A DNA stretch of 21,007 nt, from assembly GCA_018304385.1 (NCBI GenBank), contig JAGVWJ010000039.1, positions 1 through 21,007 of the forward strand. Reading direction: 5' to 3'. Source of the stretch: Candidatus Micrarchaeota archaeon (GTDB taxonomy: Archaea > Micrarchaeota > Micrarchaeia > Anstonellales > Bilamarchaeaceae). The notes below the pieces were generated by a model that was given only the letters and a program-made list of their open reading frames with translations, did no database searches and was not told where the DNA came from. Below, one piece after another: positions 1,012-15,483 of the stretch (positions are counted from its first letter, which is position 1; each line of letters begins with the position of its first letter). The position numbers were made by a program, and so were the translations under genes.

Positions 1012-1554
1012 ATGGGAGACCCACCAAAACTTAGAAATAAATATTCAAGACCAAAGCACTTATGGGAAGCAGATAGACTAAAAGAGGATACTACGCTTAA
1101 AAAAGAATACGGATTAAAAAACATGCGCGAGCTGTGGATAGCAACAGCAGAACTAAAAAAATATAGACGTGAAGCAAGGCGCTTGTTATCGTTAAGTGCA
1201 GAAGAACGCGAAAAAGACAAAATAAAAATACTAACAAAGTTAAATAATCTCGGAATATTAGATAAAGATTCGGCTGTAGATGATATCTTATCATTAACTG
1301 TAAAACATATATTAGAAAGAAGATTGGCTACAATAGTTTTAAGAAAAGGATTAGCGCATACAATGCCGCAAAGCCGTCAACTTATAACACATGGATTCAT
1401 AGCTATTGGAGGTAGAAAGGTATCTGCTCCAAGTTATTTAGTTTATAAAGAACAAGAGGTAGTAATATCTTATTCAAAACCAATAGATTTAAGTAAAAAA
1501 CCACTGGTAATAGAGGAGAAAAAAGAGGAAACAAAAGTGGAAAATGCAGCTTAG
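1012..1554 (+). CDS. rps4: 30S ribosomal protein S4 (uS4, archaeal type)
   Basis: MGDPPKLRNKYSRPKHLW, EYGLKNMRELW, ILERRLATIV, SRQLITHGFI. Confidence 0.97.
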   Translation: MGDPPKLRNKYSRPKHLWEADRLKEDTTLKKEYGLKNMRELWIATAELKKYRREARRLLSLSAEEREKDKIKILTKLNNLGILDKDSAVDDILSLTVKHILERRLATIVLRKGLAHTMPQSRQLITHGFIAIGGRKVSAPSYLVYKEQEVVISYSKPIDLSKKPLVIEEKKEETKVENAA

Positions 1555-1573
1555 AAAACAAAGGTAGATACAG

Positions 1574-2044
1574 ATGACTGAAGAAAAAAAACCAGAGGTA
1601 AAAACTGAACAAAAAGAAACACCAGCGCAAGCGCCAAAACCACCAGAGCTTAAAAGAGCAAAGCCACGATTTGCAGTTGTTCATGTATACTCATCTAAAA
1701 ACGACACTATAATTACAGCAACAGATTTAAGCGGTGCAGAAACATTAGCATGGGCAAGTGGCGGTATGATGGTAAAATCAGATCGTGAAGAAGGAAAACC
1801 TTACGCAGCTATGCAGGCAACTCTTAAAATTGTTGGCAACTTAAAAGAAAAGGGAATTACTCATGTTCACGTACGCATTCGCGCTCCTGGTGGTAATGGA
1901 TTAAAAACACCCGGGCCTGGTGCACAGGCAGTTATTAGAACAATGGCAAGAACTGGCATACGCATAGGCAAAATAGATGATGTTACACCTGTTCCTACTG
2001 ATTCCATGAAAAGAAAGGGTGGAAGAAGAGGAAGAAGGGTATAG
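1574..2044 (+). CDS. rps11: 30S ribosomal protein S11 (uS11)
   Basis: [72 protein letters not shown]. Confidence 0.98.
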
Positions 2045-2078
2045 ATTGGCAATGGGCAGTGAGCCTTGAGCAATGAGC
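2044..2078. repeat. Degenerate 7-bp tandem repeat (5 units ending in GC) between rps11 and rpoD
   Basis: GATTGGC AATGGGC AGTGAGC CTTGAGC AATGAGC. Confidence 0.7.
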
Positions 2079-2089
2079 ATGGTGATATT

Positions 2090-2677
2090 TTGAAAGTCTC
2101 GCTTGAAAAGGAAAGAGCAAATAAAATTGAGTTATCAATTGAAGGAATAAATATAACATTTGCTAATGCAATTCGTAGATACGGAATGATGCGCACACCG
2201 ATACTAGCAATAGATAATGTAGTATTCTATGATAATACAGCTTGGATTTTTGATGAATACTTATCGCATCGCCTGGGTATGATGCCAATAACAACACCAG
2301 AAAAATTACCCCAAGATGTGGAAGTAATATTTACATTAGATGAAACTGGCCCAAAAATTGTCTATTCAAAAGATATAAAAAGCAATGATAAAGAGATTTC
2401 AGTTGCAAGAGAGCAGATACCGCTATTAACATTAAACGAAAATCAGAGATTACGCTTTGAAGCAAAAGCAAAATTAGGTTATGGCACAAAGCATGCAAAA
2501 TTCCAAGCTGGTTTGGTTACTTATGAAGCTATTGGTGAAAACAAATTTAAATTCAAGGTAGAAAGTTTTTATCAGATGAAACCAACTGAAGTTATTGTAA
2601 GGGGATGCAACGAATTAGAAAAAGATCTTGCTGAAGCTGCAAAAGAATTAAAGAAAGCAGAAAAGAAGAAGGATTAG
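2090..2677 (+). CDS. rpoD: DNA-directed RNA polymerase subunit D (Rpo3), short form
   Basis: FANAIRR...TPILAIDNVVFYDNT..FDEYLSHRLGMMP; G.G.KHAKFQAG. TTG start at 2090 after GGTGA (2081-2085); canonical position after rps11. Confidence 0.95.
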   Translation: MKVSLEKERANKIELSIEGINITFANAIRRYGMMRTPILAIDNVVFYDNTAWIFDEYLSHRLGMMPITTPEKLPQDVEVIFTLDETGPKIVYSKDIKSNDKEISVAREQIPLLTLNENQRLRFEAKAKLGYGTKHAKFQAGLVTYEAIGENKFKFKVESFYQMKPTEVIVRGCNELEKDLAEAAKELKKAEKKKD

Positions 2678-2720
2678 CACTAATTTTAATTCAACTGGTT
2701 GCATACCGAATATAGGTCTA

Positions 2721-2750
2721 TTTTTAAATATATACATAATTGTATATATT
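2721..2750 (+). promoter_or_regulatory. TATA box plus 10-bp perfect inverted repeat (candidate PadR operator)
   Basis: TTTTTAAATA at 2721-2730; AATATATACA (2727-2736), TAAT, TGTATATATT (2741-2750), ending directly before the ATG at 2751. Confidence 0.6.
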
Positions 2751-3077
2751 ATGAGAAATTTAAATATAGTTCCGTCACATATCTTAAAAAAAATGTATCT
2801 TTTTATCCTCTGGCTTATAAGCAAGAGAGAATTACATGGGTATGGAATGATCAAACTACTGAACAAAGAAGGTATGAAACATGCAACTGCTAGCAGACTC
2901 TATCCTCTTCTTAATATAATGTACAAGGAAAATCTAATTTTTCAAAAAGAAAAGAAGCAAGGAAAGAGAGTAAGAAAGATATATGCGCTTACTGCAAAGG
3001 GAAAAAAGAAACTCAGTGATGGAAAGAAAATGTTCCCTCCATTAATGCGTGAGTTCCTAAAAGAGATGATTGGATGA
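2751..3077 (+). CDS. PadR-family transcriptional regulator
   Basis: ILWLISKRELHGYGMIKLL...LYPLLNIM...RKIYALTAKGKK is the typical PadR winged-helix pattern. Confidence 0.92.
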   Translation: MRNLNIVPSHILKKMYLFILWLISKRELHGYGMIKLLNKEGMKHATASRLYPLLNIMYKENLIFQKEKKQGKRVRKIYALTAKGKKKLSDGKKMFPPLMREFLKEMIG

Positions 3078-3748
3078 AACAGGACGTCATACGGCTGGAA
3101 AACGTATCAAAAATATATGATATGGGTGAGGAGAAGATTTTCGCACTTGATGAAATTGACTTGAACATAGAAAAAAATGATTTCGTGAGCATCCTCGGCC
3201 CTAGTGGAAGCGGAAAAAGCACGCTTTTGCACATTCTTGGCTTATTAGACGACCCTACAAGCGGAAAGGTTTTTCTAGACGGAGTTGAGATAAACAAGCT
3301 AAATGAGGATACTCGCGCTCATTTAAGAGGAAAGAAAATTGGCTTTGTATTCCAAACATTTAATCTAGTTCCAAGTCTCACTGTATTGGAAAATGTTGCA
3401 TTGCCTGCTGTAATATATGAACAAGATGAATATTCAGCCCATTCAAGGGCTACTAAAATATTAGAAAAAATAGGCATGGGTGATAGGCTTTTGCATTATC
3501 CTGGCCAGCTTAGTGGCGGGCAAAGACAAAGGGTTGCAATTGCACGTGCACTAGTAAACGAACCAGAGATAGTATTAGCCGATGAACCTACAGGCAATTT
3601 AGATTCAAAAACTGGAAGCGAGGTACTTAAAATGTTTAGAGGATTGCATGAAGAAGGTAAAACGATCGCCATCATAACACATGACGCTAGTATAACCAAA
3701 ATAACAAAAAGGATAATCAGAATAAAGGATGGAAAAATAACGGGGTGA
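3074..3748 (+). CDS. ABC transporter ATP-binding protein (LolD/MacB type)
   Basis: Walker A GPSGSGKS, signature LSGGQRQRVAIARAL, Walker B IVLADEPTGNLD, H-loop ITHD. Confidence 0.96.
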   Translation: MKQDVIRLENVSKIYDMGEEKIFALDEIDLNIEKNDFVSILGPSGSGKSTLLHILGLLDDPTSGKVFLDGVEINKLNEDTRAHLRGKKIGFVFQTFNLVPSLTVLENVALPAVIYEQDEYSAHSRATKILEKIGMGDRLLHYPGQLSGGQRQRVAIARALVNEPEIVLADEPTGNLDSKTGSEVLKMFRGLHEEGKTIAIITHDASITKITKRIIRIKDGKITG

Positions 3749-3752
3749 GATT

Positions 3753-5225
3753 ATGAAATCTGTGGTATTTGTCATTTTATTCATTTTATTAGGTGGTGTC
3801 TTATTCGCGCCATTATCAATAGATTCTTATGAACTTACCCCATCAGAATTAAAACTAGGCCAAGAAGGTTCGATAAAAATAGTGCTCAAAAATATACAAC
3901 TAACAGGAGTGACTACTGCCTCCCAGGTAGATGACATAACGGTTTATTATAACTCAATAGAAGGCATAGATGTAAGAGTAGACCAACCAATAAGAGTAGG
4001 CACAATAGAAAGCGGATCTAGCGCCATAGTAACAGTGCCAATTAGGGTCTTACCAAATGCTAAGGCAGGCATAATTCCTGTTTCATTTTCAATTAAACAA
4101 AAAGATGGCGACACGCAAAACTTAATAGTTCCTGTTAAGATTTCTAACCCCCCAATATTAACCTTATCCTTAGATAAACAGACTATTAGCAGTACAGATA
4201 CGTTAAATGTAACCATTACGAATAATGGAGGAAATGTGAATAAACTTATTGTACGATTAAACAATACGGAAAAATTTTCTTTTGTAGGTACTGACCAGAT
4301 ATATGTTGGAGGTATAAATGGTTCTAAAACATTCAAAATTGCCATTGACTCGAGAAACGCTGACGAGGGGGTTAATACAATTCCCTTGCTACTCGCCTAC
4401 GAAGAAGAAGGTGGCGATTCTGCAAGCGAAGCAAAAAATATTGCCATAACTGTAAAAAAAGAAAAGGCAGATGTTATTTTTAGCCAGGAGGCTCAGATTG
4501 TAACATCTATTGATAATGTGCTCAAACTAAAAGTAAGAAACATCGGCCGGTCGCTTAATGATTTTCGGGTAATCCTTGAAGATGATAATATAAAGGCCAA
4601 AGAAACAAAAGAAATAAAGCTTGGCGATTTTGCTGCTGATGATGAAAAAATAATAGATATACGCGTATTCGCTGATACAGAACCAGGAGTTAGAAATACC
4701 AATATAAAACTTAAATGGGTAGAGGAAGACGTGGAAAAAGAGGAAAAGATAACTATTCCTATTGTTGTAAGCTCAGATGCGGATGTAGGAATATTCCTTG
4801 ACTCCAAACCTGCGCCTCTTGTACCAACTGGAGAGCACACCCTATCCGTAACGGTATCAAATATTGGTTCTTACAGAATTGAAAATGTTGAGGTTGCACT
4901 TCAAGAGAATGATATACTGGAGGTTCTTAATGCCCAAAGGTCACAATATATAGGTGGTCTGGAGAACGATGCCTTCAGCGCGGTTCAATATAAAATCAGA
5001 ATAAAAAATATCCAACCAGGGACCCATACCCTTCCTATATTTGTAAGATATAAAGATCAATCAGGAATCTGGATAGAAAAAAATATAACTAGCAGTGTTG
5101 TTATAAGGCCTTTTGAAGAATCTGGAAAGAAAGGTGGCAGCACTCTGCCGTATATAGTTGGTGCAGCTTTATTGCTACTATCTATATACTGGTATTTTAG
5201 AAGAAAAAAGAAACAAGTGGTATAA
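3753..5225 (+). CDS. Secreted, membrane-anchored Ig-like repeat protein (COG1361 S-layer-domain-like)
   Basis: N-terminal signal peptide; repeated beta-rich ..V.N.G....V.V.L modules with YIG.LE motifs; C-terminal TM helix plus basic tail (IYWYFRRKKK); typical companion of archaeal MacB-like ABC operons. Confidence 0.8.
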   Translation: MKSVVFVILFILLGGVLFAPLSIDSYELTPSELKLGQEGSIKIVLKNIQLTGVTTASQVDDITVYYNSIEGIDVRVDQPIRVGTIESGSSAIVTVPIRVLPNAKAGIIPVSFSIKQKDGDTQNLIVPVKISNPPILTLSLDKQTISSTDTLNVTITNNGGNVNKLIVRLNNTEKFSFVGTDQIYVGGINGSKTFKIAIDSRNADEGVNTIPLLLAYEEEGGDSASEAKNIAITVKKEKADVIFSQEAQIVTSIDNVLKLKVRNIGRSLNDFRVILEDDNIKAKETKEIKLGDFAADDEKIIDIRVFADTEPGVRNTNIKLKWVEEDVEKEEKITIPIVVSSDADVGIFLDSKPAPLVPTGEHTLSVTVSNIGSYRIENVEVALQENDILEVLNAQRSQYIGGLENDAFSAVQYKIRIKNIQPGTHTLPIFVRYKDQSGIWIEKNITSSVVIRPFEESGKKGGSTLPYIVGAALLLLSIYWYFRRKKKQVV

Positions 5226-6574: not shown

Positions 6575-7426
6575 TTATATGACATTTTTATAATAATTCC
6601 AGTAATCTTCCTTTAATCCTTTTATTAATGATGTAAATCTAATACCTAGTCTTTTTATTTTCTTATTGCTGACAAAAAAGCTCTCATTTGCAAATGGAAA
6701 TTCTTCTTCTTTGAATTTTTCTCTATCCGCGCTGGGATTAAATTGAATCTTAGGTTTTATACCTACAATTTTTCCCATCTGTTCTACTAGTTTTCTAAGT
6801 GTAATTATGTCATCCCCTGCGCAGTTGAATGCACCAACTATTTTGTTCTCAGTCAACAATGCTATTATATCTACAACTTCCTTTGCAAACACAAATTGTA
6901 TTTTTGCTTTCCCATCTCCTGGCAAAACCAAAGGAATGCCTTGTTTTATTCTAGAATATATAAAGTGTTCTCTATCAACATAATTTCTAGGGCCAAGAAT
7001 ATACACTGGTCTTATTGTCGCGTATTTTATTCCGCTTTTTTCGAGAATTTTTTCACATTCCGCTTTTCCTTTGTTATAATTTCCCCATAAGGGCCAGTTA
7101 CCGAGTTCTGATTCTTCGGTTAATGGAAATTTATCAGTCTTCTTATATGAAGCAACAGTCCCGAAATTTATAAAAAAATCAAAATTAAGCTGTTCGATTG
7201 CTTTTTTTGTTTGTTCACCCTTGTAAGCGCACATATCTATAACTACATCGAATTTGTCTTTTATATTAAAGTCATTGTTCCTATCTCCTTGGATGAATGT
7301 TACATGCGAATAATTCGACTCTATTTTACCACGATTAAAGATTGTTATAGTATGACCATTCTTAAAGAGTTTTTGGATTAGATATGGGCCAACAAACCTA
7401 GACCCGCCTATTATTAGTATTTTCAT
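6575..7426 (-). CDS. NAD-dependent epimerase/dehydratase family protein (atypical SDR)
   Basis: MKILIIGGSRFVG Rossmann motif, YNKGK (YxxxK), IRPVYILGP. Confidence 0.9.
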   Translation of the reverse strand: MKILIIGGSRFVGPYLIQKLFKNGHTITIFNRGKIESNYSHVTFIQGDRNNDFNIKDKFDVVIDMCAYKGEQTKKAIEQLNFDFFINFGTVASYKKTDKFPLTEESELGNWPLWGNYNKGKAECEKILEKSGIKYATIRPVYILGPRNYVDREHFIYSRIKQGIPLVLPGDGKAKIQFVFAKEVVDIIALLTENKIVGAFNCAGDDIITLRKLVEQMGKIVGIKPKIQFNPSADREKFKEEEFPFANESFFVSNKKIKRLGIRFTSLIKGLKEDYWNYYKNVI

Positions 7427-7582: not shown

Positions 7583-7624
7583 AATGAGAATCTAGAAGTA
7601 TAATATAGTGCAGGGGTGGCGGAG

Positions 7625-7673
7625 TCACATCAGTTTCGAGTTTCCGGTTTCGGGTCTCGAGAATGTGTCGCAA
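7625..7673 (+). other. tRNA intron 1, 49 nt, D-loop position 15/16, BHB-type
   Basis: Central helix GCGG (7619-7622) / TCGC (7668-7671); 3-nt bulges AG|T and AA|C; inner helix CACAT/ATGTG. Removal restores the D-loop AGCGGCCAA. Confidence 0.88.
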
Positions 7674-7728
7674 CGGCCAAACGCGTAAGGTTGAGGGCCT
7701 TATGGCTTAGTGCCTTCAAGTGTTCGAA

Positions 7729-7897
7729 ATTGCTGCTTTCTTAAAAAGAAAGCAGTGGCAAAGAAACACGATATTTCGTGTTTTTGGCTCAAGCCTTTTT
7801 TATATTAGAAAATATTTATTCTAAAAAGGCTTTGTCAAAGTGGCAAAAAAACTTTGACAAATCGTTACATCATAGATGTAAAGGCTTGAACGAGCAA
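7729..7897 (+). other. tRNA intron 2, about 169 nt, T-loop (59/60, or 57/58-58/59), relaxed BHB
   Basis: Removal restores TTCGAAT. Central helix TTCG (7723-7726) / CGAG (7891-7894), 5' bulge AAA, 3' bulge of 4 nt (CAAT); the exact junction can slide by 1-2 nt. Confidence 0.82.
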
Positions 7898-7963
7898 TCA
7901 CTTCCCCTGCACTTTATCCTAGTATTAGCAATAACCCTAAAATCATCCTAGCTCAAAACGCTT

Positions 7964-8155
7964 TTAGACTTTTTTCACGTTCTTTGCACGCAACCCGCGT
8001 TCGCTTGATTCAACCTCGTACTCTACAGCGTCGCCGGTCGCTAGTACTGCTCCACCTTCAACTGCCGAAGTGTGCACGTACACGTCCTTACCATCATCAC
8101 CTGTGATAAAACCAAAACTACGCGCGGTATTAAACATTTTTACTTTTCCTTTCAT
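7964..8155 (-). CDS. Cold-shock protein (CspA family)
   Basis: MKGKVKMFN...FGFI (RNP1), DVYVH (RNP2), VEYEV...RAKNV; GAGGGTGA ribosome-binding site upstream. Confidence 0.95.
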   Translation of the reverse strand: MKGKVKMFNTARSFGFITGDDGKDVYVHTSAVEGGAVLATGDAVEYEVESSERGLRAKNVKKV

Positions 8156-8276
8156 TAGATCACCCTCTTTTCATATTACTTTTGAAGCGTATAGCTTATA
8201 AATTTTTATTATAACTAAATTTTCCCGAGATCTTTCAAATAGAAATCTTCTTAAATCATAAGTCAATAGAATAACT

Positions 8277-9659
8277 ATGAGACTAACTTTTAATGGTGCA
8301 GCTGGAATTGTTACGGGTTCCTGCTATCTTCTAGAAACAACTGGAGAAAAAATTCTTATCGACTGCGGAATGTTTCAGGGTACGAAAGATATAACCAGAA
8401 TGAACTACGAACCATTCAGATTCAAACCTAACGAAATTTCTTACTTATTGCTAACTCACGCTCACATAGATCATTCAGGTCTCATACCCAAGCTAATAAA
8501 AAATGGTTTCCACGGAAAAATAATCGCAACACCACCTACAGTAGATCTGGCAAAAATTATGCTAAAAGATTCAGCTCATGTAAATGAAGACGATACTCTT
8601 CATGAAAATAAAAGACGTATGAGGCTGGGGCTTAAACCAAGAGACCCATTGTATGCGCTTAGTGACGTGCTTAGGTCATTTGAATTTTTCCATCAGATTG
8701 GATATGAAAATCCATATTCACTTACAGATAAAATCACTGTAATATTCCACAACGCTGGCCATATTTTAGGATCTTCCATAGTGGAACTCTTAGTTAGAGA
8801 AGCAGGAAAAACTACGAAGATAATGTTTTCTGGAGATTTAGGTCAGGGAGGAACTCAGATCTTAGAAGACCCTGCAACTATTCAGGAAGCTGATTTTGTT
8901 CTTGTTGAGTCAACATATGGAAATCGTCCGCGTGAGGATGCTACAATACGTGGAGAACTTCTGTCCAAAGAAATAAATGAAGCATTTGCTAGAGGCGGAA
9001 AACTGATGATCCCGTCTTTTGCAGTTGAAAGAACACAGGAATTGCTCTATTATTTGCACATTTTAATTCGTGATGGGAACTTCCCTGCTGAAATTGTATT
9101 TCTTGATAGCCCCCTTGCAATCGAGGTTACTGAAGTTTTCAAAAGATACATGAATTATTTCTCCCCAAGATTGAGAAAGGAATTCACCAATCCATTCACC
9201 TTCAATCAGTTGAAATGCCTTAGGACTGCAGATGAATCACGCAGCATGAACGACTATAATAAACCATGTATAATAATAGCTGGCAGTGGTATGTGCAATG
9301 CTGGAAGAATTAGGCATCACCTTAAACATAATATATGGAAATCAGAGAATACACTGCTTTTTGTAGGTTATCAGGCTGAAGGAACTTTAGGCAGAGTTAT
9401 TCTTGATGGTGCAAAGAAAGTTAGAATGATGGGGCTCGAAGTAGCGGTAAATGCCAAGATAAGAAAAATAGAAAGTTTTTCTTCTCATGCAGATTCTAAG
9501 CACTTGACCAGCTGGATTACTGCTCTTAGAAACAAACCAAAGAAAATTTTCATAACCCACGGGGAGCCTGCTTCAGCAAGAGGACTTGAATCTAATCTTA
9601 GGAAACTAGGTTTTCGGACACATGTTCCGCGTATTGGAGAAGTTGTTGAACTGAAATAA
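8277..9659 (+). CDS. MBL-fold beta-CASP ribonuclease (COG1236-type, no KH domains)
   Basis: HAHIDHSG, AGHILGS, SGDLG, ESTYG, AGSGMC, SSHAD and THGE motifs are all intact. Confidence 0.93.
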   Translation: MRLTFNGAAGIVTGSCYLLETTGEKILIDCGMFQGTKDITRMNYEPFRFKPNEISYLLLTHAHIDHSGLIPKLIKNGFHGKIIATPPTVDLAKIMLKDSAHVNEDDTLHENKRRMRLGLKPRDPLYALSDVLRSFEFFHQIGYENPYSLTDKITVIFHNAGHILGSSIVELLVREAGKTTKIMFSGDLGQGGTQILEDPATIQEADFVLVESTYGNRPREDATIRGELLSKEINEAFARGGKLMIPSFAVERTQELLYYLHILIRDGNFPAEIVFLDSPLAIEVTEVFKRYMNYFSPRLRKEFTNPFTFNQLKCLRTADESRSMNDYNKPCIIIAGSGMCNAGRIRHHLKHNIWKSENTLLFVGYQAEGTLGRVILDGAKKVRMMGLEVAVNAKIRKIESFSSHADSKHLTSWITALRNKPKKIFITHGEPASARGLESNLRKLGFRTHVPRIGEVVELK

Positions 9660-9714
9660 CTATACTGTGCACAATAACATAAAATTACCACCTACCTCTA
9701 ACTTTTTAATCTAG

Positions 9715-9760
9715 TCTTCCAAAGTCTCACAAGGTGGGTTAATGAAAAAAATCGAAGCGC
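9715..9760 (+). repeat. Direct repeat copy 1 of the APC permease leader and first codons
   Basis: 43/46 identical to 10855-10900; identical 32-bp core TCTCACAAGGTGGGTTAATGAAAAAAATCGAA at 9725-9756 and 10865-10896 (1140 bp apart). Confidence 0.92.
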
Positions 9761-9894
9761 TTGGCCAGATAATACAGAAGTGTATCATCGTTTGGTTTCT
9801 CATGCCATTAGCAACTATACGAACAAAAAATTACAAGATATCTTATTCTAATCTATTCAGTCAATCACCTAAGTCGTATCCGGCCAGCCTTTAA
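9742..9894 (+). CDS. Possible 50-aa ORF opened by the duplicated start (MKKIEALGQIIQKCIIVWFLMPLATIRTKNYKISYSNLFSQSPKSYPASL)
   Basis: AGGTGG ribosome-binding site and ATG copied from the APC gene; no recognisable family; may be a remnant. Confidence 0.25.
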   Translation: MKKIEALGQIIQKCIIVWFLMPLATIRTKNYKISYSNLFSQSPKSYPASL

Positions 9895-9917
9895 TAGGTC
9901 TTTTGCTGTAATCTTAA

Positions 9918-10132
9918 CTACGCTTACGACCGATAAATCGCCGATGCGATTTATGGTCCATTGTTCGATGCGTCGAACAATCGGAACCAAAATTTGGCGT
10001 TTGTAGATATCCTGAAACCGACCTTCGGTTTCAATCTATCAGCAACCTGCTGGTTGCCGATACCGACATTTTCGTGCTGATATAGACGTTTTTACGTCGT
10101 AGGGAACTGAGTCCGATTATCTCTTCCCCTAC
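9918..10132. ncRNA. Unassigned multi-hairpin structured element (ncRNA, intron-like or MITE-like)
   Basis: Perfect stems: 9933-9954 (9 bp), 9960-9981 (9 bp), 10013-10033 (9 bp, plus TAGAT/ATCTA), 10042-10057 (6 bp), 10085-10098 (5 bp), GTAGGG/CCCTAC 10099-10132. Basal stem CTTACGAC (9923-9930) / GTCGTAGG (10096-10103). The structure is directly visible; its class is unknown. Confidence 0.6.
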
Positions 10133-10177
10133 ATTAACTTTTTTCTGTAACTCTGCACCCTTTAGTTCTGTAATTTT

Positions 10178-10777
10178 TCATTTTATAGAAGCCCTAAGAA
10201 AAAATCTTGCATATAAATAACCAAATATGAATGGACCTATATGAGCTGCGTGAGCTATATTTACACCAGGAAACGGCTTAAAAATATTAAATATATCTAA
10301 AGCTTCGTAAATTAAAAAAAGTATCAAAGCAGTTCGAACTTTCATTTTTATAAAAAATACTTCGATATTTGTATTCAAAAATAATAGGACACACGCACCA
10401 AAAACTGCAGAAACAGAATCACTAGCACCTATTGCAGTTCCACTTCCCCCCAAACCTAATACTAGCACGATAGTCATGCTAATAGCACCTACGAAACCAC
10501 CTAGAAAAAAAAGTTTTAAGAGTTCTTTGCTGTTAAACTTGCTCTCAAGCAGGTTGCCAAAAATAAAAAGCGCGTACATATTTTGGAATAAGTGAATCGG
10601 GTGCCCATGGAGAAAGACGTGGGTAAAAATCCTATAGGGTTGATTGATCACTTCTGTTATGGAAAAACGAAATGCTTCACGGTAGCCATCATCCCATGTT
10701 TGAATAATAAATGTTAAAATAATTATCACAATAAGGATGTTGGTCGCACTTATATATCTTTTAAGATCGAGTGACAT
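10178..10777 (-). CDS. Rhomboid family intramembrane serine protease
   Basis: YRIFTHVFLH..PIHLFQNMYALFIFGNLLE, catalytic-Ser motif GAS(D), AHAAHIG. Confidence 0.9.
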   Translation of the reverse strand: MSLDLKRYISATNILIVIIILTFIIQTWDDGYREAFRFSITEVINQPYRIFTHVFLHGHPIHLFQNMYALFIFGNLLESKFNSKELLKLFFLGGFVGAISMTIVLVLGLGGSGTAIGASDSVSAVFGACVLLFLNTNIEVFFIKMKVRTALILFLIYEALDIFNIFKPFPGVNIAHAAHIGPFIFGYLYARFFLRASIK

Positions 10778-10854
10778 TGAGTTATTACTAAGTTAATAGT
10801 TAAAAATTTATTGATCTATTATAGAATATTGGGTCCGTATATATTTAAACTTGA

Positions 10855-10900
10855 TCTTCTAAAATCTCACAAGGTGGGTTAATGAAAAAAATCGAAACGC
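10855..10900 (+). repeat. Direct repeat copy 2 (native APC permease leader and start)
   Basis: See copy 1 at 9715-9760. Confidence 0.92.
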
Positions 10901-12264
10901 CTAGTCTGAAGAAGGAATTGGGCTTATTAGGCAGCTTTGCAATGGGATTTGCAGATGTTGGCGCTGATATATTCCTAGCACTTGGACTTATTGCAGCATA
11001 CGCACACGGCTTAATGCCACTAGCAATATTAGTTGTAGCAATCGTATATATTTGCTCTGGATTGGCTTATGCAGAGTTAGGCGCGGCAATACCTGTTTCT
11101 GGAGGATCATCTGCATTTGCAAAAGAAACATTTGGGAATTTTGCTGGTTTCTTAGCTGGCTGGGGTTTAATATTAGATTACACGCTATGCATAGCATTAT
11201 TTGCATTTGCATCTGCAGGTTATTTGTCATTCTTTTTTCCAGCAATTGCTAGTCTAATCCCATCAATAGCAGCGCTTTTAATCTTCGTATTAATGGCAGT
11301 TAATTTATTAGGAATAAAAGAATCCTCTTCAGTTAATTCTGCGCTTACGGTCATAGTAATCGTAATAGTGACAGCTCTAATATTTCTAGGTTTTAGTTTT
11401 TCATTTGATTATGAAAAATTTAAATCTGGATTGACTCCGATAGCAAAGGACCCTGGGTTTAGAGATTTCTTGTATTCAATAACAATAGCAATGGTAACAT
11501 TTGTTGGCATAGAAAGTATATCTCAAGGTGCTGAAGAAACAAAGGATCCGGGAAAGACGATACCGCGAGCTACATTATTATCTATATTTTTCGTTGTTGT
11601 ATTTGCTATTTTTATGTCTGTTATGGCGCTTGGACTCGTAACGCCAGCAACGCTTGCAGAAAATATGGAAAAACCATTAATCCCGGTTGCAGATGCACTC
11701 CCATTTGCAAATGTGCTAGTTCCAATAGTTGCCTTTGCCGGCTTCATGATATGCTTTGTTTCTGCGAACACAGGTGTAATTGGTGTTTCAAGAGTAGTTT
11801 ATTTCATGGGAAAGTCTGGATTAGTATCAAGAAGATTAAGCTGGGTGCATCCTAAATTTAGAACGCCTTGGATAACTACAATCATATTCTCGATTATTGC
11901 GATGCTACTTGCATACTTTAGCGATATGGTGCTTCTAGGGGAGCTTTATGCATTCGGCGCGCTAACCGCTTATACGCTAACGAATCTCTCTTCAATGCAA
12001 CTTAGAATAAAAATGCCAGACTTAATAAGGCCTTTCAAAATGCCATTTAACGTAAAAATAGGAGAACACGAGATATCACTCGTCTCGCTAGTTGGAATAT
12101 TCAGCTGTCTTACTATATTTATATTAGTAGCATTTCTACATGTTGAAGGAAGAAATTTCGCATTTCTTTGGTTCTTGATTGGTATTATATACTTTAAATT
12201 TTATCAAGATTATAGAAACAAAGAACAGAAAATGATCGCGCATAACAAAGCGCAATTTATTTAA
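10882..12264 (+). CDS. APC-family amino acid permease
   Basis: About 12 TM helices; LAYAELGAAIPVSGG, FVGIESISQGAEET..P..TIPRA, SRVVYFMG, HPKFRTPW, RPFKMP. Confidence 0.93.
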   Translation: MKKIETPSLKKELGLLGSFAMGFADVGADIFLALGLIAAYAHGLMPLAILVVAIVYICSGLAYAELGAAIPVSGGSSAFAKETFGNFAGFLAGWGLILDYTLCIALFAFASAGYLSFFFPAIASLIPSIAALLIFVLMAVNLLGIKESSSVNSALTVIVIVIVTALIFLGFSFSFDYEKFKSGLTPIAKDPGFRDFLYSITIAMVTFVGIESISQGAEETKDPGKTIPRATLLSIFFVVVFAIFMSVMALGLVTPATLAENMEKPLIPVADALPFANVLVPIVAFAGFMICFVSANTGVIGVSRVVYFMGKSGLVSRRLSWVHPKFRTPWITTIIFSIIAMLLAYFSDMVLLGELYAFGALTAYTLTNLSSMQLRIKMPDLIRPFKMPFNVKIGEHEISLVSLVGIFSCLTIFILVAFLHVEGRNFAFLWFLIGIIYFKFYQDYRNKEQKMIAHNKAQFI

Positions 12265-12287
12265 TTGTATTAGAATTATATTCTATT

Positions 12288-12920
12288 ATGACCAGTCATG
12301 AGATTATTCATGGTTTAGCTTATTTCATATTCCTTATTGCACTGCTTCTTACAATCTATTTTCGCGATAAGGCAAGAAAATTACCAAAGATTACTGGAAA
12401 GGAGATACGTTCGGTATACCGCAAAGCGTGGGTGGAATCTGTTCTTAAAAGCGGAGACAAAGCCCAGTTCATACAAACAATGCGGAATAATATCTCTATA
12501 TCAACTGCATTACTTGGGGCTACTATTGTTTCATTTGGCTTAATATTAAACGCAGGAATTATAAAACAAAACGGGGATATTTTTATTGCTGTTAGAATAC
12601 TTTCAATGATATCTCTGATTGGATATGCGCTTTTTATGTTACTTCTAGAAATAAGAACGCTTACATATATCCCTATAGTATCGCATGTTCCTGAGGCTTA
12701 TATCAAAAAGTATGAAAAAACAGATAAAGCAAGCTATATCGCAAAGCTTTTGCATGAATCTTTTGATTATTTTTCTAATACGGTCCGTGCATTGTTTTAT
12801 ATTGCGCCGTTACTTATTTGGTTTTACAATGTTTATCTATTTATAGTTGCAACCATGATTATTTCATACGCTATGTATCATGAAGATTTCGGAACAAAGA
12901 GCGGGATTGTCTTATTCTAA
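12288..12920 (+). CDS. Membrane protein, DUF599-like
   Basis: R..W...V....AQFIQTMRNNISISTALL and FSNTVRALFYIAPLLIWF resemble the DUF599 pattern; multiple TM helices. Confidence 0.7.
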   Translation: MTSHEIIHGLAYFIFLIALLLTIYFRDKARKLPKITGKEIRSVYRKAWVESVLKSGDKAQFIQTMRNNISISTALLGATIVSFGLILNAGIIKQNGDIFIAVRILSMISLIGYALFMLLLEIRTLTYIPIVSHVPEAYIKKYEKTDKASYIAKLLHESFDYFSNTVRALFYIAPLLIWFYNVYLFIVATMIISYAMYHEDFGTKSGIVLF

Positions 12921-12925
12921 ATTAT

Positions 12926-13411
12926 TTATTCAAAATTCGTCCTTGAAATTTTTATAAAGTGAATATCTTCTTTCTCAATATATGCAATTACTAGTTCTTT
13001 CCTTAGTTTTCCGGCAAATCCTATTGCTTGTTTTATATCTTTCATATTAGTTTGCCAGTCTCTTGGCACAACCTTCAAAACGTATTGCGTTCTATCCTCG
13101 CCAACGCGAATTCCTTTTTGATGGACACGAAAATATTCAGTAGTATCCATGCTGACTCTTGTAATATAACCGCGATCTCTTAGAAATTTTATTATTTTGT
13201 ATTTATCATCTGCAAGTGCATCACCTTTTCTTGCATTTTCCAGTATTTTATCTTTATCAAATTTTATTACTCCTTTATCTGCGAAATATGCAGCCTCTAG
13301 CAATGGTAATTTTGCTTTTCCGCCTTCTTCAATTCCTGCACCTAAACCAATCAATTTTGTAATAAGCTCACTATCACTGACCTCTAAATAATCTTCATAA
13401 AGTTTTATCAT
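12926..13411 (-). CDS. tRNA splicing endonuclease, non-catalytic structural (beta) subunit
   Basis: LPLLEAAY, YKIIKFLRDRGY, FRVxxKG, YVLKV, AGKLRKELVIAYI match the EndA fold. Catalytic Tyr is replaced by His (FRVH) and catalytic His by Arg (EDRTQY). AGGTG ribosome-binding site. Confidence 0.85.
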   Translation of the reverse strand: MIKLYEDYLEVSDSELITKLIGLGAGIEEGGKAKLPLLEAAYFADKGVIKFDKDKILENARKGDALADDKYKIIKFLRDRGYITRVSMDTTEYFRVHQKGIRVGEDRTQYVLKVVPRDWQTNMKDIKQAIGFAGKLRKELVIAYIEKEDIHFIKISRTNFE

Positions 13412-13419
13412 TTCTGCAC

Positions 13420-13878
13420 CTAAAATTTCTTAGACATCTTTCCTTTTGTATTCTGCAAGATCTGTTCTATTGCATTATTAGTTAAATTCTCTATATTCAT
13501 ATCCGCTTCGTGCGTTCCTCCAAGACTGTCTATGGTAATGCTCCCAATTCGTACTATTCTTTGAAATAGAGACTGATGTACATTAACATTAGCTATTCTT
13601 TCAAATGGTATTATAATTCTCTTAACACCTACAATGCCTGTTTTTAGGGTAATATCATGATCTGTTAGCTCTATTGATTTGAATCTATTTGCTATCCAAG
13701 TTAATAGCGATCTGAATATAACCAATATCCAAATTACTAATATTACTTGATTGTGATAATCACCTATATTACTTGGTAGATAAGGTGCTGAGAATTCCAC
13801 AAGTCCACTCATTATTACTCCAAATACAGTATATCTAAAATAAGAAGGCATGCCACTCGGGTGAAATACTTCAGTCAT
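13420..13878 (-). CDS. Membrane protein with bacterial PH domain (bPH_2/YdbS-like)
   Basis: Two N-terminal TM segments, then IELTDHDITLKTGIVG..RIIIPFERIANVNVHQSLFQRIVRIGSITIDSLG. Confidence 0.85.
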   Translation of the reverse strand: MTEVFHPSGMPSYFRYTVFGVIMSGLVEFSAPYLPSNIGDYHNQVILVIWILVIFRSLLTWIANRFKSIELTDHDITLKTGIVGVKRIIIPFERIANVNVHQSLFQRIVRIGSITIDSLGGTHEADMNIENLTNNAIEQILQNTKGKMSKKF

Positions 13879-13930
13879 ACTAATAATGGCTACTGAAGTT
13901 ATTAAAAAACCTTTCTTACCGATTGACTCT

Positions 13931-14312
13931 ATGATTACTGCTTACTGCGATGGTGCGTGCTCAGGAAACCCTGGACCAATGGGCATTGGCATAAATAAAA
14001 GAGATCAGCGAATTTATTGGAAAAGGCACGAATAATATTGCAGAATATAACGCAGCACTGCGAGCACTTGAAGAAGCGAAGAAGCTCGGGGAGAAAGAAG
14101 TTATTATTAGAAGTGATAGCCAACTACTTATTAAACAACTAAATAGAGAGTATAAAATAAAAGAAACGCATCTTAAGCCGTTAAAATTGAAGATTGATGA
14201 ATTATGTTTGGAGATACATGCTAAGTTTGAGCATGTTGAACGCGAGCGAAACAAACGAGCTGATTACTTATCTAAGAGGGCGATTTCCAATGAAACTAAC
14301 AACAAACCTTGA
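13931..14312 (+). pseudogene. rnhA: Ribonuclease HI, frameshifted near 13994
   Basis: 13931-14035 reads MITAYCDGACSGNPGPMGIGI then stops. The +1 frame from 13995 reads IKEISEFIGKGTNNIAEYNAALRALEEA...IRSDSQLLIKQL...HVERERNKRADYLSKRAI...* (TGA 14310-14312). Absent from the ORF track. Confidence 0.88.
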
Positions 14313-15483
14313 ACTTGGAAAATATTTCACATTTGAGTTATCAAAGCAAATGCCAATACATAACTGGTTTTATTATAAGGAAGGATTTGCACCACAAGTT
14401 GTAGAATGGGCAATAAAGCAAGGGGTTATTGGCTCGTGGCCGGTGGCTAGTGGCCAAATGCTAATAGCTAATAGCCAAAAGCTATTACTTGATCCTTTCT
14501 GCGGCTGTGGCACAAGTATGCTCACTGCTAAAGGCGCAGGGCTCAATGCAATTGGTTTTGATATATCACCAATAGCTGTGCTCGCTTCTCAAGTTAAATG
14601 TGAAAACTATGATAAAAATGAAATAGAAGGGATAAGGAAATTTTTGGATATTTCGAAATTACCAGAAGCAAACTTTGATTGGCAGTTTGAATTATTTTCA
14701 CCACGTGCAGTATTTCCAAGATCTAATTATAATGCGCTTTTATCATTAAGGCAAGCAATAGATACAGTGGAAAATGGAAAAATAAGAAACCTCTTGCTAT
14801 TGACGTTAGTTTCTATAATTCCACAGGTCGGCATCTTCATAAAAGACGGTGGAGTACTTCGTATAGATAAACGTAAGCACGCGATGCCTACTAAGGAAGC
14901 ATTTAGGAGAAAACTAAAAAATATGATCTATGACTTAGAAAAACATGCGGTTGTTGGTGAGGTACCAGAAATTTCGCAAGGAGATGCGCGCGCTATGCAG
15001 GTTGCAGATAATTCAATAGATATAATCGTAACCTCTCCACCTTATTTGAATAATGTTGACTATACTAAAGTTTATGGTCTTGAATTAAGTTTAATGTTTT
15101 TAGATAAATCAATAACCAAGCAGATTCGAGGCGAAAGCGTTCGTTCGTTTATTACTTCAAATGTTCCGCCAGACAGTGTACCGCCAGAAATTGGGGATGC
15201 TGGCATTAAGGTGCCGGTTATTGGTAATTATTTTTCTGACCTTGAAAAAACACTAATAGAAATAAAACGGGTGCTTAAAACCGGAAGCGCTTGCTATTTG
15301 ATTATTGGAAATTCTGTTGTTTACGGCCTGCAGATATTTGTTGATGAATTGCTTGCAGAAATGGCAGAGCGTTTAGGCATGCAAACTGAAATAATTGTTG
15401 GTGCCGAGCGAGTTGCTGATGTTAAACCAAGAAGGGTGAAAATTAGGGAGAGTATAGTGGTAATAAGAAAAACAGGATTGTAA
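14290..15483 (+). CDS. Amino-DNA methyltransferase (motif order I then IV, SPPY; likely N4-cytosine)
   Basis: IHNWFYYKEGF, LDPFCGCGT (motif I), GDAR, IVTSPPY (motif IV). Start moved from 14194 to ATG 14290, which overlaps the RNase HI 3' end. Confidence 0.88.
   Translation: MKLTTNLELGKYFTFELSKQMPIHNWFYYKEGFAPQVVEWAIKQGVIGSWPVASGQMLIANSQKLLLDPFCGCGTSMLTAKGAGLNAIGFDISPIAVLASQVKCENYDKNEIEGIRKFLDISKLPEANFDWQFELFSPRAVFPRSNYNALLSLRQAIDTVENGKIRNLLLLTLVSIIPQVGIFIKDGGVLRIDKRKHAMPTKEAFRRKLKNMIYDLEKHAVVGEVPEISQGDARAMQVADNSIDIIVTSPPYLNNVDYTKVYGLELSLMFLDKSITKQIRGESVRSFITSNVPPDSVPPEIGDAGIKVPVIGNYFSDLEKTLIEIKRVLKTGSACYLIIGNSVVYGLQIFVDELLAEMAERLGMQTEIIVGAERVADVKPRRVKIRESIVVIRKTGL
14427..14482. repeat. Eight degenerate 7-mers forming an imperfect fold-back inside the methyltransferase ORF
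   Basis: TATTGGC TCGTGGC CGGTGGC TAGTGGC CAAATGC TAATAGC TAATAGC CAAAAGC. Confidence 0.85.

Follow-up and report, generated by a model that had tools for sequence, protein, structure and literature searches.

The locus

The window analysed here (the whole stretch of DNA under study, 21,007 nt) belongs to a Candidatus Micrarchaeota genome of 1.53 Mb and 89% completeness. A block of closely packed hairpins occupies part of the gap between a beta-CASP RNase gene and a rhomboid gene, downstream of a tRNA-Leu(GAG) gene with two introns. The coordinates of these features, and of the parts into which we divide the block, are collected in Table 1; other genomes and contigs are referred to below by G and C numbers, with G000 standing for this genome.

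Table 1. Features of the hairpin block and its surroundings (positions in the window; an oblique stroke separates the two strands of a stem).
Feature	Position	Strand	Remarks
tRNA-Leu(GAG) gene	7610-7911	+	D-loop and T-loop introns; 3' exon 7898-7911
Accessory DNA between tRNA-Leu gene and cassette	7912-9854
Cold-shock-domain gene	7964-8155	-	Pfam
Beta-CASP RNase gene	8277-9659	+	Pfam
Orphan copy of permease promoter and start	9705-9760
Promoter module 'A'	9855-9919	+	~80% identical to the region preceding the G089 backbone
TATA box	9890-9897	+	30 nt ahead of backbone start
Hairpin block	9918-10132		In 518-nt gap from beta-CASP RNase gene (+) to rhomboid gene (-)
Backbone, ~110 nt in total	9920-9929, 9986-10009, 10063-10133	+	From uninterrupted relatives
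Backbone segment 1, 5' strand of outer helix P1	9920-9929	+	From alignment of uninterrupted copies and P1 pair counts
Insert 1, twin-hairpin repeat (hairpins 1 and 2)	9930-9985	+	Interrupts 5' strand of P1
Hairpin 1, perfect 9-bp inverted repeat	9933-9941/9946-9954
Hairpin 2, perfect 9-bp inverted repeat	9960-9968/9973-9981
Backbone segment 2, P1 tip hairpin and 3' strand of P1	9986-10009	+
Insert 2, second hairpin pair (hairpins 4 and 5)	10010-10062	+	GATA on either side
Hairpin 4, stem	10014-10021/10025-10032
Hairpin 5, stem	10041-10047/10052-10058
Backbone segment 3	10063-10119	+	Two related ~20-nt half-units, hairpin 10086-10100, 5' strand of terminal helix
Backbone hairpin, 5-bp stem	10086-10090/10096-10100
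Terminal helix, stem	10101-10108/10123-10130
Core, copy of tRNA-Leu 3' exon	10120-10133	+	3' strand of T-stem, 3' strand of acceptor, discriminator
T6 run and diverged 'type 1' right flank	10134-10165	+	T6 run at 10139-10144
Rhomboid gene	10178-10777	-

Both the 5' acceptor and the 3' end of the tRNA-Leu(GAG) gene can be read directly from the sequence. ARAGORN misses this gene because its introns split it and, with introns allowed, reports only two tRNA genes in the 1.53 Mb genome. All four tRNA-Leu-type genes of the genome (C53:7610, the one in the window; C16:36270; C26:22559; C33:8305) have a long T-loop intron immediately ahead of the 3' exon.

The beta-CASP gene is the fourth paralogue of its kind in this genome, where relatives have two to four beta-CASP matches each. 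Of 40 relatives only 4 have an orthologue of it, and none was found in the two same-genus genomes. The closest orthologue sits in a different genus (87% identical in amino acids, 83% in nucleotides) and homology stops at the gene borders, so that the gene looks like a gene-sized horizontal transfer. No synteny with the beta-CASP/rhomboid locus was found in the same-genus genomes, whose corresponding proteins are ~35% identical; with relatives this diverged, neither an empty site nor an excised circle was seen for the locus. On the far side of the rhomboid gene, the promoter, ribosome-binding region and first codons of an amino-acid permease gene (10882-12264) at 10844-10900 are duplicated 1.14 kb upstream, with 89-95% identity, as the orphan copy of Table 1. 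The two duplicates bracket a short ORF (9742-9894), the cassette and the rhomboid gene, which suggests that the segment between them was inserted or rearranged as a block.

Hairpins and folding

A sequence-only reading of this stretch had described the block as six back-to-back hairpins closed by a basal stem, and the inverted repeats were indeed found where it placed them. Folding of positions 9900-10150 gave -76.9 kcal/mol on the plus strand, compared with -52.5 (sd 4.5) for dinucleotide shuffles (z -5.4, with 0 of 200 shuffles matching it), and -86.3 kcal/mol on the minus strand (z -8.1 against dinucleotide shuffles); on both strands the fold is thus better than that of shuffled sequence. 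The proposed basal stem (9923-9930/10096-10103) exists, with eight pairs of which one is U.G, but is not conserved among copies of the underlying backbone described below, since uninterrupted copies read ACGAG where the window reads ACGAC, that C being contributed by insert 1. Similarly, the view that all stems are perfectly Watson-Crick, and therefore fold on either strand, applies to the inserted hairpins but not to the backbone helices; these contain conserved G.U pairs, which would let them function only on the plus strand.

As the same reading had concluded, the block bears no signature of a known RNA: ARAGORN detects no tRNA in it, and no Rfam family matches the window at the gathering threshold. 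Permissive Rfam searches (E up to 10) with the window and two uninterrupted copies returned chance-level matches only, and a literature search for hairpin repeats or small RNAs of Micrarchaeota yielded nothing relevant.

A backbone with two insertions

Homologue searches with the cassette and with its pieces, a check that the sequence-only reading had pointed to, found relatives in other genera and in metagenomes. Compared with these, the block reads as a patchwork of a ~110-nt backbone and two inserted hairpin pairs, and not as one RNA fold. Uninterrupted relatives of the backbone are present in five other genera and in metagenomes, with complete ~110-nt copies read in G152, G004, G089 and several metagenome contigs. 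Once both inserts are removed, the window sequence is 75-80% identical to the uninterrupted backbones and, over its first ~83 nt, nearly identical to the G089 backbone; it is without an inner ~14-nt stretch of the last hairpin that other copies have. The whole block was found twice in G015, which belongs to another genus, at 92-93% nucleotide identity. All junctions were taken from pairwise comparisons; MAFFT, applied to interrupted and uninterrupted copies together, misplaced the inserts.

The pieces of the block also recur separately in this genome and its relatives, namely hairpin 2 alone, hairpins 1 and 2 as a pair, and the 3' third alone. This genome has just one copy of hairpins 3, 6 and 7 and of the linkers, and elsewhere these are found always together, in fixed order, with the promoter and the tRNA-like end. 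Set against the uninterrupted copies, hairpins 1, 2, 4 and 5 are apparent add-ons, and hairpins 3, 6 and 7 form the backbone. A single closed architecture of six hairpins therefore fails, because four of them appear to be later insertions into a ~110-nt unit that occurs elsewhere without them. The further suggestion of a novel structured RNA or a non-autonomous mobile element is partly supported: insert 1 is non-autonomous mobile DNA, and the backbone, with its TATA box and plus-strand G.U helices, looks transcribed.

A covariance model of the backbone, built from six copies, identified one copy in this genome and was positive in 7 of 99 family genomes, with one to three copies in each. No backbone copy was found in viral contigs (IMG/VR). 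A viral origin was considered and rejected on this result, the 26 matches to a 16-mer being chance matches by the covariance model.

The inserted hairpin pairs

Insert 1 is missing from at least six backbones and present, with identical junctions, in G015; filled and empty sites compared side by side suggest a 2-nt GA duplication. Its family comprises 21 copies from at least ten genera, which align over ~60 nt with conserved junction and ends. Both stems show many compensatory changes across these 21 copies, pointing to selection on the hairpins. This genome holds three full and five half copies, all within other hairpin clusters. With regard to the features by which MITEs are recognized, insert 1 has 5-nt complementary ends and the apparent GA duplication, and no parent IS was identified. 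Insert 1 is a dispersed twin-hairpin repeat, a form of non-autonomous mobile DNA.

A search for Y1 (HUH) transposases (PF01797) gave no match in this genome (89% complete) and gave matches in control genomes; a TnpB-type gene likewise had no match in this genome. The possibility that the hairpins are a TnpB/omega-RNA or an IS200/IS605 end was dropped, given that no Y1 or TnpB gene was found in the genome. Neighbouring proteins of ~430 aa in G015 were considered as TnpB candidates and turned out to be ATPase and Schlafen-like proteins.

Insert 2 is missing from most backbones and is represented by two copies in G015 and two in G154. No free-standing copies were found, insert 2 being confined to some of the backbone copies; its first stem differs by two compensatory changes between the window and the G154 copies.

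Hairpin 2 by itself recurs seven times in this genome, each time inside another hairpin cluster, as would be expected if the block were a pure pile-up of mobile palindromes in the manner of BIMEs, that is, six independent repeats with no underlying unit. We consider such a pile-up quite unlikely, as it does not account for hairpins 3, 6 and 7 and their linkers, single-copy here and found elsewhere only jointly and in fixed order, nor for an insert 2 that has no free-standing copies.

Two of the clusters in this genome have particular surroundings. On contig C15, a palindromic copy of hairpin 2 (7345-7371) lies in a hairpin cluster, and ~350 nt past it is the sole tyrosine-recombinase (Xer-like) match of the genome (7728-8285). 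On contig C26, a hairpin pair with an exact hairpin 2 copy (22560-22640) lies immediately upstream of the tRNA-Leu gene, in the place where the promoter of that gene would be expected.

The tRNA-Leu end and its repeats

The core at the end of the backbone is identical at 12 of 14 positions to the 3' exon of the tRNA-Leu gene 2.2 kb away, both being on the plus strand, and at 15 of 16 positions to the 3' end of the C16 tRNA, with one G-to-A change in the core. The cassette thus ends in a copy of the tRNA-Leu 3' exon, which makes it an attachment-site-type repeat behind a tRNA gene. All backbone copies end in such a core, and the copies of the window, G152 and G004 each have, at 2.0-2.3 kb upstream, a tRNA-Leu gene in the same orientation. 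The sequence common to tRNA and unit measures only 12-16 nt in most pairs, and the two cores of the window are followed by flanks that show no match to one another. For the G089 backbone, end and flank agree with the end and flank of a tRNA-Leu gene in 34 of 37 positions (score 59, against a maximum of 29 with shuffled sequence).

Further copies of the core are organized as series. Relatives carry same-strand core arrays behind tRNA-Leu genes, and a 10-mer of the core is enriched in these genomes (16 vs 2 in G015; 8 vs 0 in G154). Among nine backbone copies with sufficient flank, six have further same-strand cores within ~2.3 kb and three have no neighbouring core. The right flanks of the cores fall into few types, each of which follows a tRNA gene in one genome and a unit in another, for example the 'type 1' flank, seen after tRNA-Leu genes or backbones in other genomes; this reassortment is the pattern expected of recombination at the core, which we regard as its probable cause.

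Units other than the backbone can take the same position. On the minus strand of contig C16 there is a tRNA with the same acceptor end (~36270-36063), and 2.2 kb further downstream along that strand comes a unit (~33990-33888) in which the promoter precedes a different short body that ends in a one-mismatch copy of the core, a layout as in the window. Additionally, a unit of ~80 nt ending at a core at locus L186 (G133:C28:19200-19550) has the full 5' acceptor sequence at its start, and may be a degenerate or unusual tRNA-like gene instead of a promoter unit.

The sequence-only reading had likened the block to the T-loop intron 2 kb upstream. The likeness is not one of fold, and the cassette has no sequence similarity to that intron (7729-7897); what links the two is the copied 3' exon. 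The unit nevertheless ends exactly in this exon, with its body at the T-loop intron position, in a genome in which nearly all tRNA genes are intron-split and in a window that contains a gene for a splicing-endonuclease subunit (12926-13411), all of which would suit an intron excised at a BHB motif from a non-tRNA transcript, or a trans-joined 3' half of a split tRNA-Leu. We rate either of these as very improbable. All four tRNA-Leu-type genes carry their own 3' exon in cis, no partner complementary to the leader was found in the genome, and the closing stem is a plain, non-conserved 8-bp helix without two 3-nt bulges around a 4-bp helix. Moreover, no splicing is needed to explain the inserts, because these are absent at the DNA level in other copies.

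Integrases and cargo

Of 99 genomes, 44 encode tyrosine integrases of one ~410-aa family, the highest number per genome being six. In relatives, the integrase gene starts 60-110 nt after a core, behind tRNA-Leu genes or units; on G089:C37, for example, the backbone is succeeded by core and flank, after which the contig ends in an integrase fragment. In integrase-bearing elements of G091 and G084, a TATA box with a short hairpin unit stands directly before the core at the far end. Neither the window nor the rest of its genome (89% complete) yielded a member of this family, the only tyrosine-recombinase match being the Xer-like one mentioned above.

The genes near backbones include AbiEi/AbiEii, a short pAgo with TIR-APAZ, a Schlafen-like protein, a DNA methylase, Fic, an IS240 transposase and AAA_14-DUF4143 ATPases (PADLOC PDC-S01). 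The short Argonaute and TIR-APAZ pair (SPARTA-like by PADLOC) occupies 1471-4367 of locus L068 (G089:C37), directly upstream of the backbone copy, with an MBL-fold nuclease and a CARF-like regulator nearby. Homology between the beta-CASP gene of the window and the MBL-fold gene near the G089 backbone was considered and none was found. A counter-example to accessory cargo is seen at locus L149 (G015:C6), where leuA-leuB-leuC-leuD-ilvE (8139-15121), apparent housekeeping genes, lie in an array between two same-strand cores with a tRNA gene adjoining; such a leu cluster is unexpected cargo for a DPANN-type genome.

Core intervals of 1.6-2.3 kb are frequent, with one or two genes each and not always an integrase, and the units that close them are structured. 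These properties recall integrons, in which case unit and core together would be attC-like folded sites ending cassettes of 1.6-2.2 kb and the tRNA-Leu end would be the primary site. Archaeal integrons are on record, most of them without integrases (PMC9668308). An integron-like system is improbable here, however, in that the recombinases are ordinary tyrosine integrases beside the tRNA, as in classical integrative elements, the unit bodies, with several helices and a promoter, are unlike the single imperfect hairpin of the attC layout, and larger core intervals of 4.9, 11, 16 and 23 kb also occur.

A broader proposal would make tRNA-Leu the seat of an integron-like gene-capture platform of Micrarchaeota, with short cassettes, carrying defence or metabolic genes, stacked behind the tRNA and each closed by a promoter-bearing structured unit. 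The transcript of the unit would end in a mimic of the tRNA 3' exon and would be cleaved by the enzymes that process tRNA. In this way the recombination state would govern whether the following gene, or the integrase, is expressed, and the units would be preferred landing sites of a transposase-less twin-hairpin repeat that also seeds tRNA introns. We hold this combination, taken as a whole, to be unlikely.

Putative promoter and transcription of the backbone

Every backbone copy has a TATA-like octamer that starts 29-31 nt before the first backbone base, a distance that holds across at least five unrelated types of upstream sequence. Promoter module A is found elsewhere in front of a second unit type, in one case 2.2 kb behind a tRNA (the C16 unit of this genome). 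Beyond the end of the backbone, a run of five or six T follows within 20 nt in about half of the copies.

The backbone helices point to a plus-strand product. The uninterrupted backbones tested fold better on the plus strand by 2.6-14.5 kcal/mol, and P1 is 84% paired, as opposed to 34-52% in slid-pairing controls, with invariant G.U pairs. Two A-U to G-C double changes in P1 were seen in the diverged G006 copy; covariation in P1 was not significant against a shuffle control, a weakness attributable to the few columns that vary. The terminal helix is found in three states, wobble/wobble, C-G/A-U and, in the window, U-A/A-U. Taken together, the backbone looks as if it were transcribed from its own promoter. 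Two other readings of the strand signals were examined and rejected. The unit is not supported as the 5' leader of a downstream gene, a co-oriented gene being present in only 10 of 15 copies, no different from chance. A minus-strand small ORF starting from the reverse complement of the core meets stops in most copies, in the window at the second codon.

A transcribed, folded unit could be a free-standing gene for a small non-coding RNA acting in trans, perhaps with neighbouring defence genes; behind its promoter it would have four helices, then a tRNA-like 3' minihelix serving to process the end, and it would terminate at the T-run, its nearness to tRNA-Leu and integrases being secondary. The fixed distance of the TATA box in unrelated contexts, the T-run in about half of the copies, the energy advantage of the plus strand, the conserved G.U pairs, the compensatory changes in P1 and the terminal helix, and a sequence conservation far above genomic background are all compatible with it. 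It is nonetheless an unlikely account for a unit of such sparse occurrence (7 of 99 family genomes, one to three copies) that tolerates insertions of 53-56 nt in two helices and that, in the window, has lost its best-conserved 3' segment. Nor would a small RNA explain why the end and flank duplicate tRNA-Leu ends and flanks, why same-strand arrays with integrases exist, or why unrelated unit bodies take the same position before the core.

Origin of the cassette and its significance

We favour, with a probability of about 0.6, the interpretation that the block was once an attachment-site arm on the integrase-distal side, equipped with an outward promoter, and that it has decayed and been colonised by hairpin repeats. 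The origin would be of an ordinary kind, a mobile-element junction with miniature repeats, in an unusual form and host. The backbone would represent the integrase-distal arm (attR, or the 'P arm' of attP) of Micrarchaeota elements that integrate site-specifically into the 3' end of tRNA-Leu genes, and with each integration the tRNA end would come to be repeated, in the same orientation, beyond the inserted genes. The window shows the corresponding order: the tRNA-Leu gene comes first, accessory genes fill the next 2.2 kb, and the promoter leads into the backbone, its core and what is left of the flank. Comparison among genomes establishes the composite build, the dispersal of insert 1, the repeated tRNA end and where it lies, the arrays, the integrases beside cores in relatives and the accessory cargo; recombination at the core, promoter activity and the sequence of events are predictions.

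The outward promoter would transcribe the structured arm across the core and, in a circularised element, would read into the integrase gene 60-110 nt past the core, as a junction promoter comparable to the outward Pcirc of ICEclc. The T-run just after the core, where present (about half of copies), would end the transcript before any integrase gene. The recombinase may bind at the core to an inverted repeat with one G-rich and one C-rich arm, which are separated by a 6-nt spacer.

As to the order of events, the twin-hairpin miniature repeat would then have inserted into P1 and the second hairpin pair into the next helix, and the composite would later have passed between genera. Such transfer is indicated by the 92-93% nucleotide identity of the cassette in G015, compared with 33-36% for the rhomboid protein within the genus. 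The copy in the window would be a relic, with a mutated core, a deleted inner 3' segment and no integrase, whose promoter now points towards the rhomboid gene from its 3' side.

If so, an apparent six-hairpin RNA becomes the marker of a hot spot for gene insertion behind tRNA-Leu in DPANN-type archaea. The genomes of such archaea are tiny and dependent on gene transfer. Cassettes bounded by the core carry AbiE, short Argonaute and TIR-APAZ, extra RNases and candidate defence ATPases, so that the units could help to locate accessory and defence genes where Micrarchaeota assemblies are fragmentary. With its outward TATA promoter ahead of the core, the system is, furthermore, a candidate case of recombination-state-coupled expression in archaea, and the comparison of filled and empty backbones yields exact insertion junctions of the twin-hairpin repeat.

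Comparison with known systems

The twin-hairpin repeat resembles bacterial REP/BIME sequences, including the CGTC- and GTAG-tagged families, and Rickettsia palindromic elements (PMC3733652, PMC2817692). Like REP/BIME, it consists of short palindromes with 8-13-bp stems and 4-5-nt loops, forms close dimers and mosaic clusters, and is located between and inside other elements; its stems covary, so that the hairpin is the conserved part. Unlike REP/BIME, it has an archaeal host (Micrarchaeota) and only ~8 copies in the genome, its dimers are fixed head-to-tail pairs of two different hairpins, and it shows an apparent 2-nt duplication. REP/BIME sequences with RAYT differ further, no RAYT/Y1 transposase gene having been found in this genome.

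With the T-loop introns of the tRNA genes in this genome, the unit shares back-to-back hairpins and a body directly before tRNA-Leu 3' exon sequence. In contrast to tRNA introns, the unit has only a promoter upstream, without tRNA exons 1-2, and has no splice motif.

Integrative elements and genomic islands that target tRNA 3' ends include tandem arrays and integrase-less remnants (CIME-type). The system described here agrees with them in the same-strand direct repeat of the tRNA 3' end behind the tRNA gene, in the tyrosine integrase gene beside the tRNA-proximal core (in relatives), in accessory and defence cargo, in several cores in a row, and in a far-end promoter facing the core. Recombination and promoter activity are, in the present system, predicted. 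It departs from them in its core of 12-16 nt (up to 37 with flank), in its many intervals of only 1.6-2.3 kb without an integrase, and in target tRNA genes that have T-loop introns directly before the core. Finally, the arm itself sets it apart, being conserved, structured, apparently transcribed and a target of hairpin repeats.
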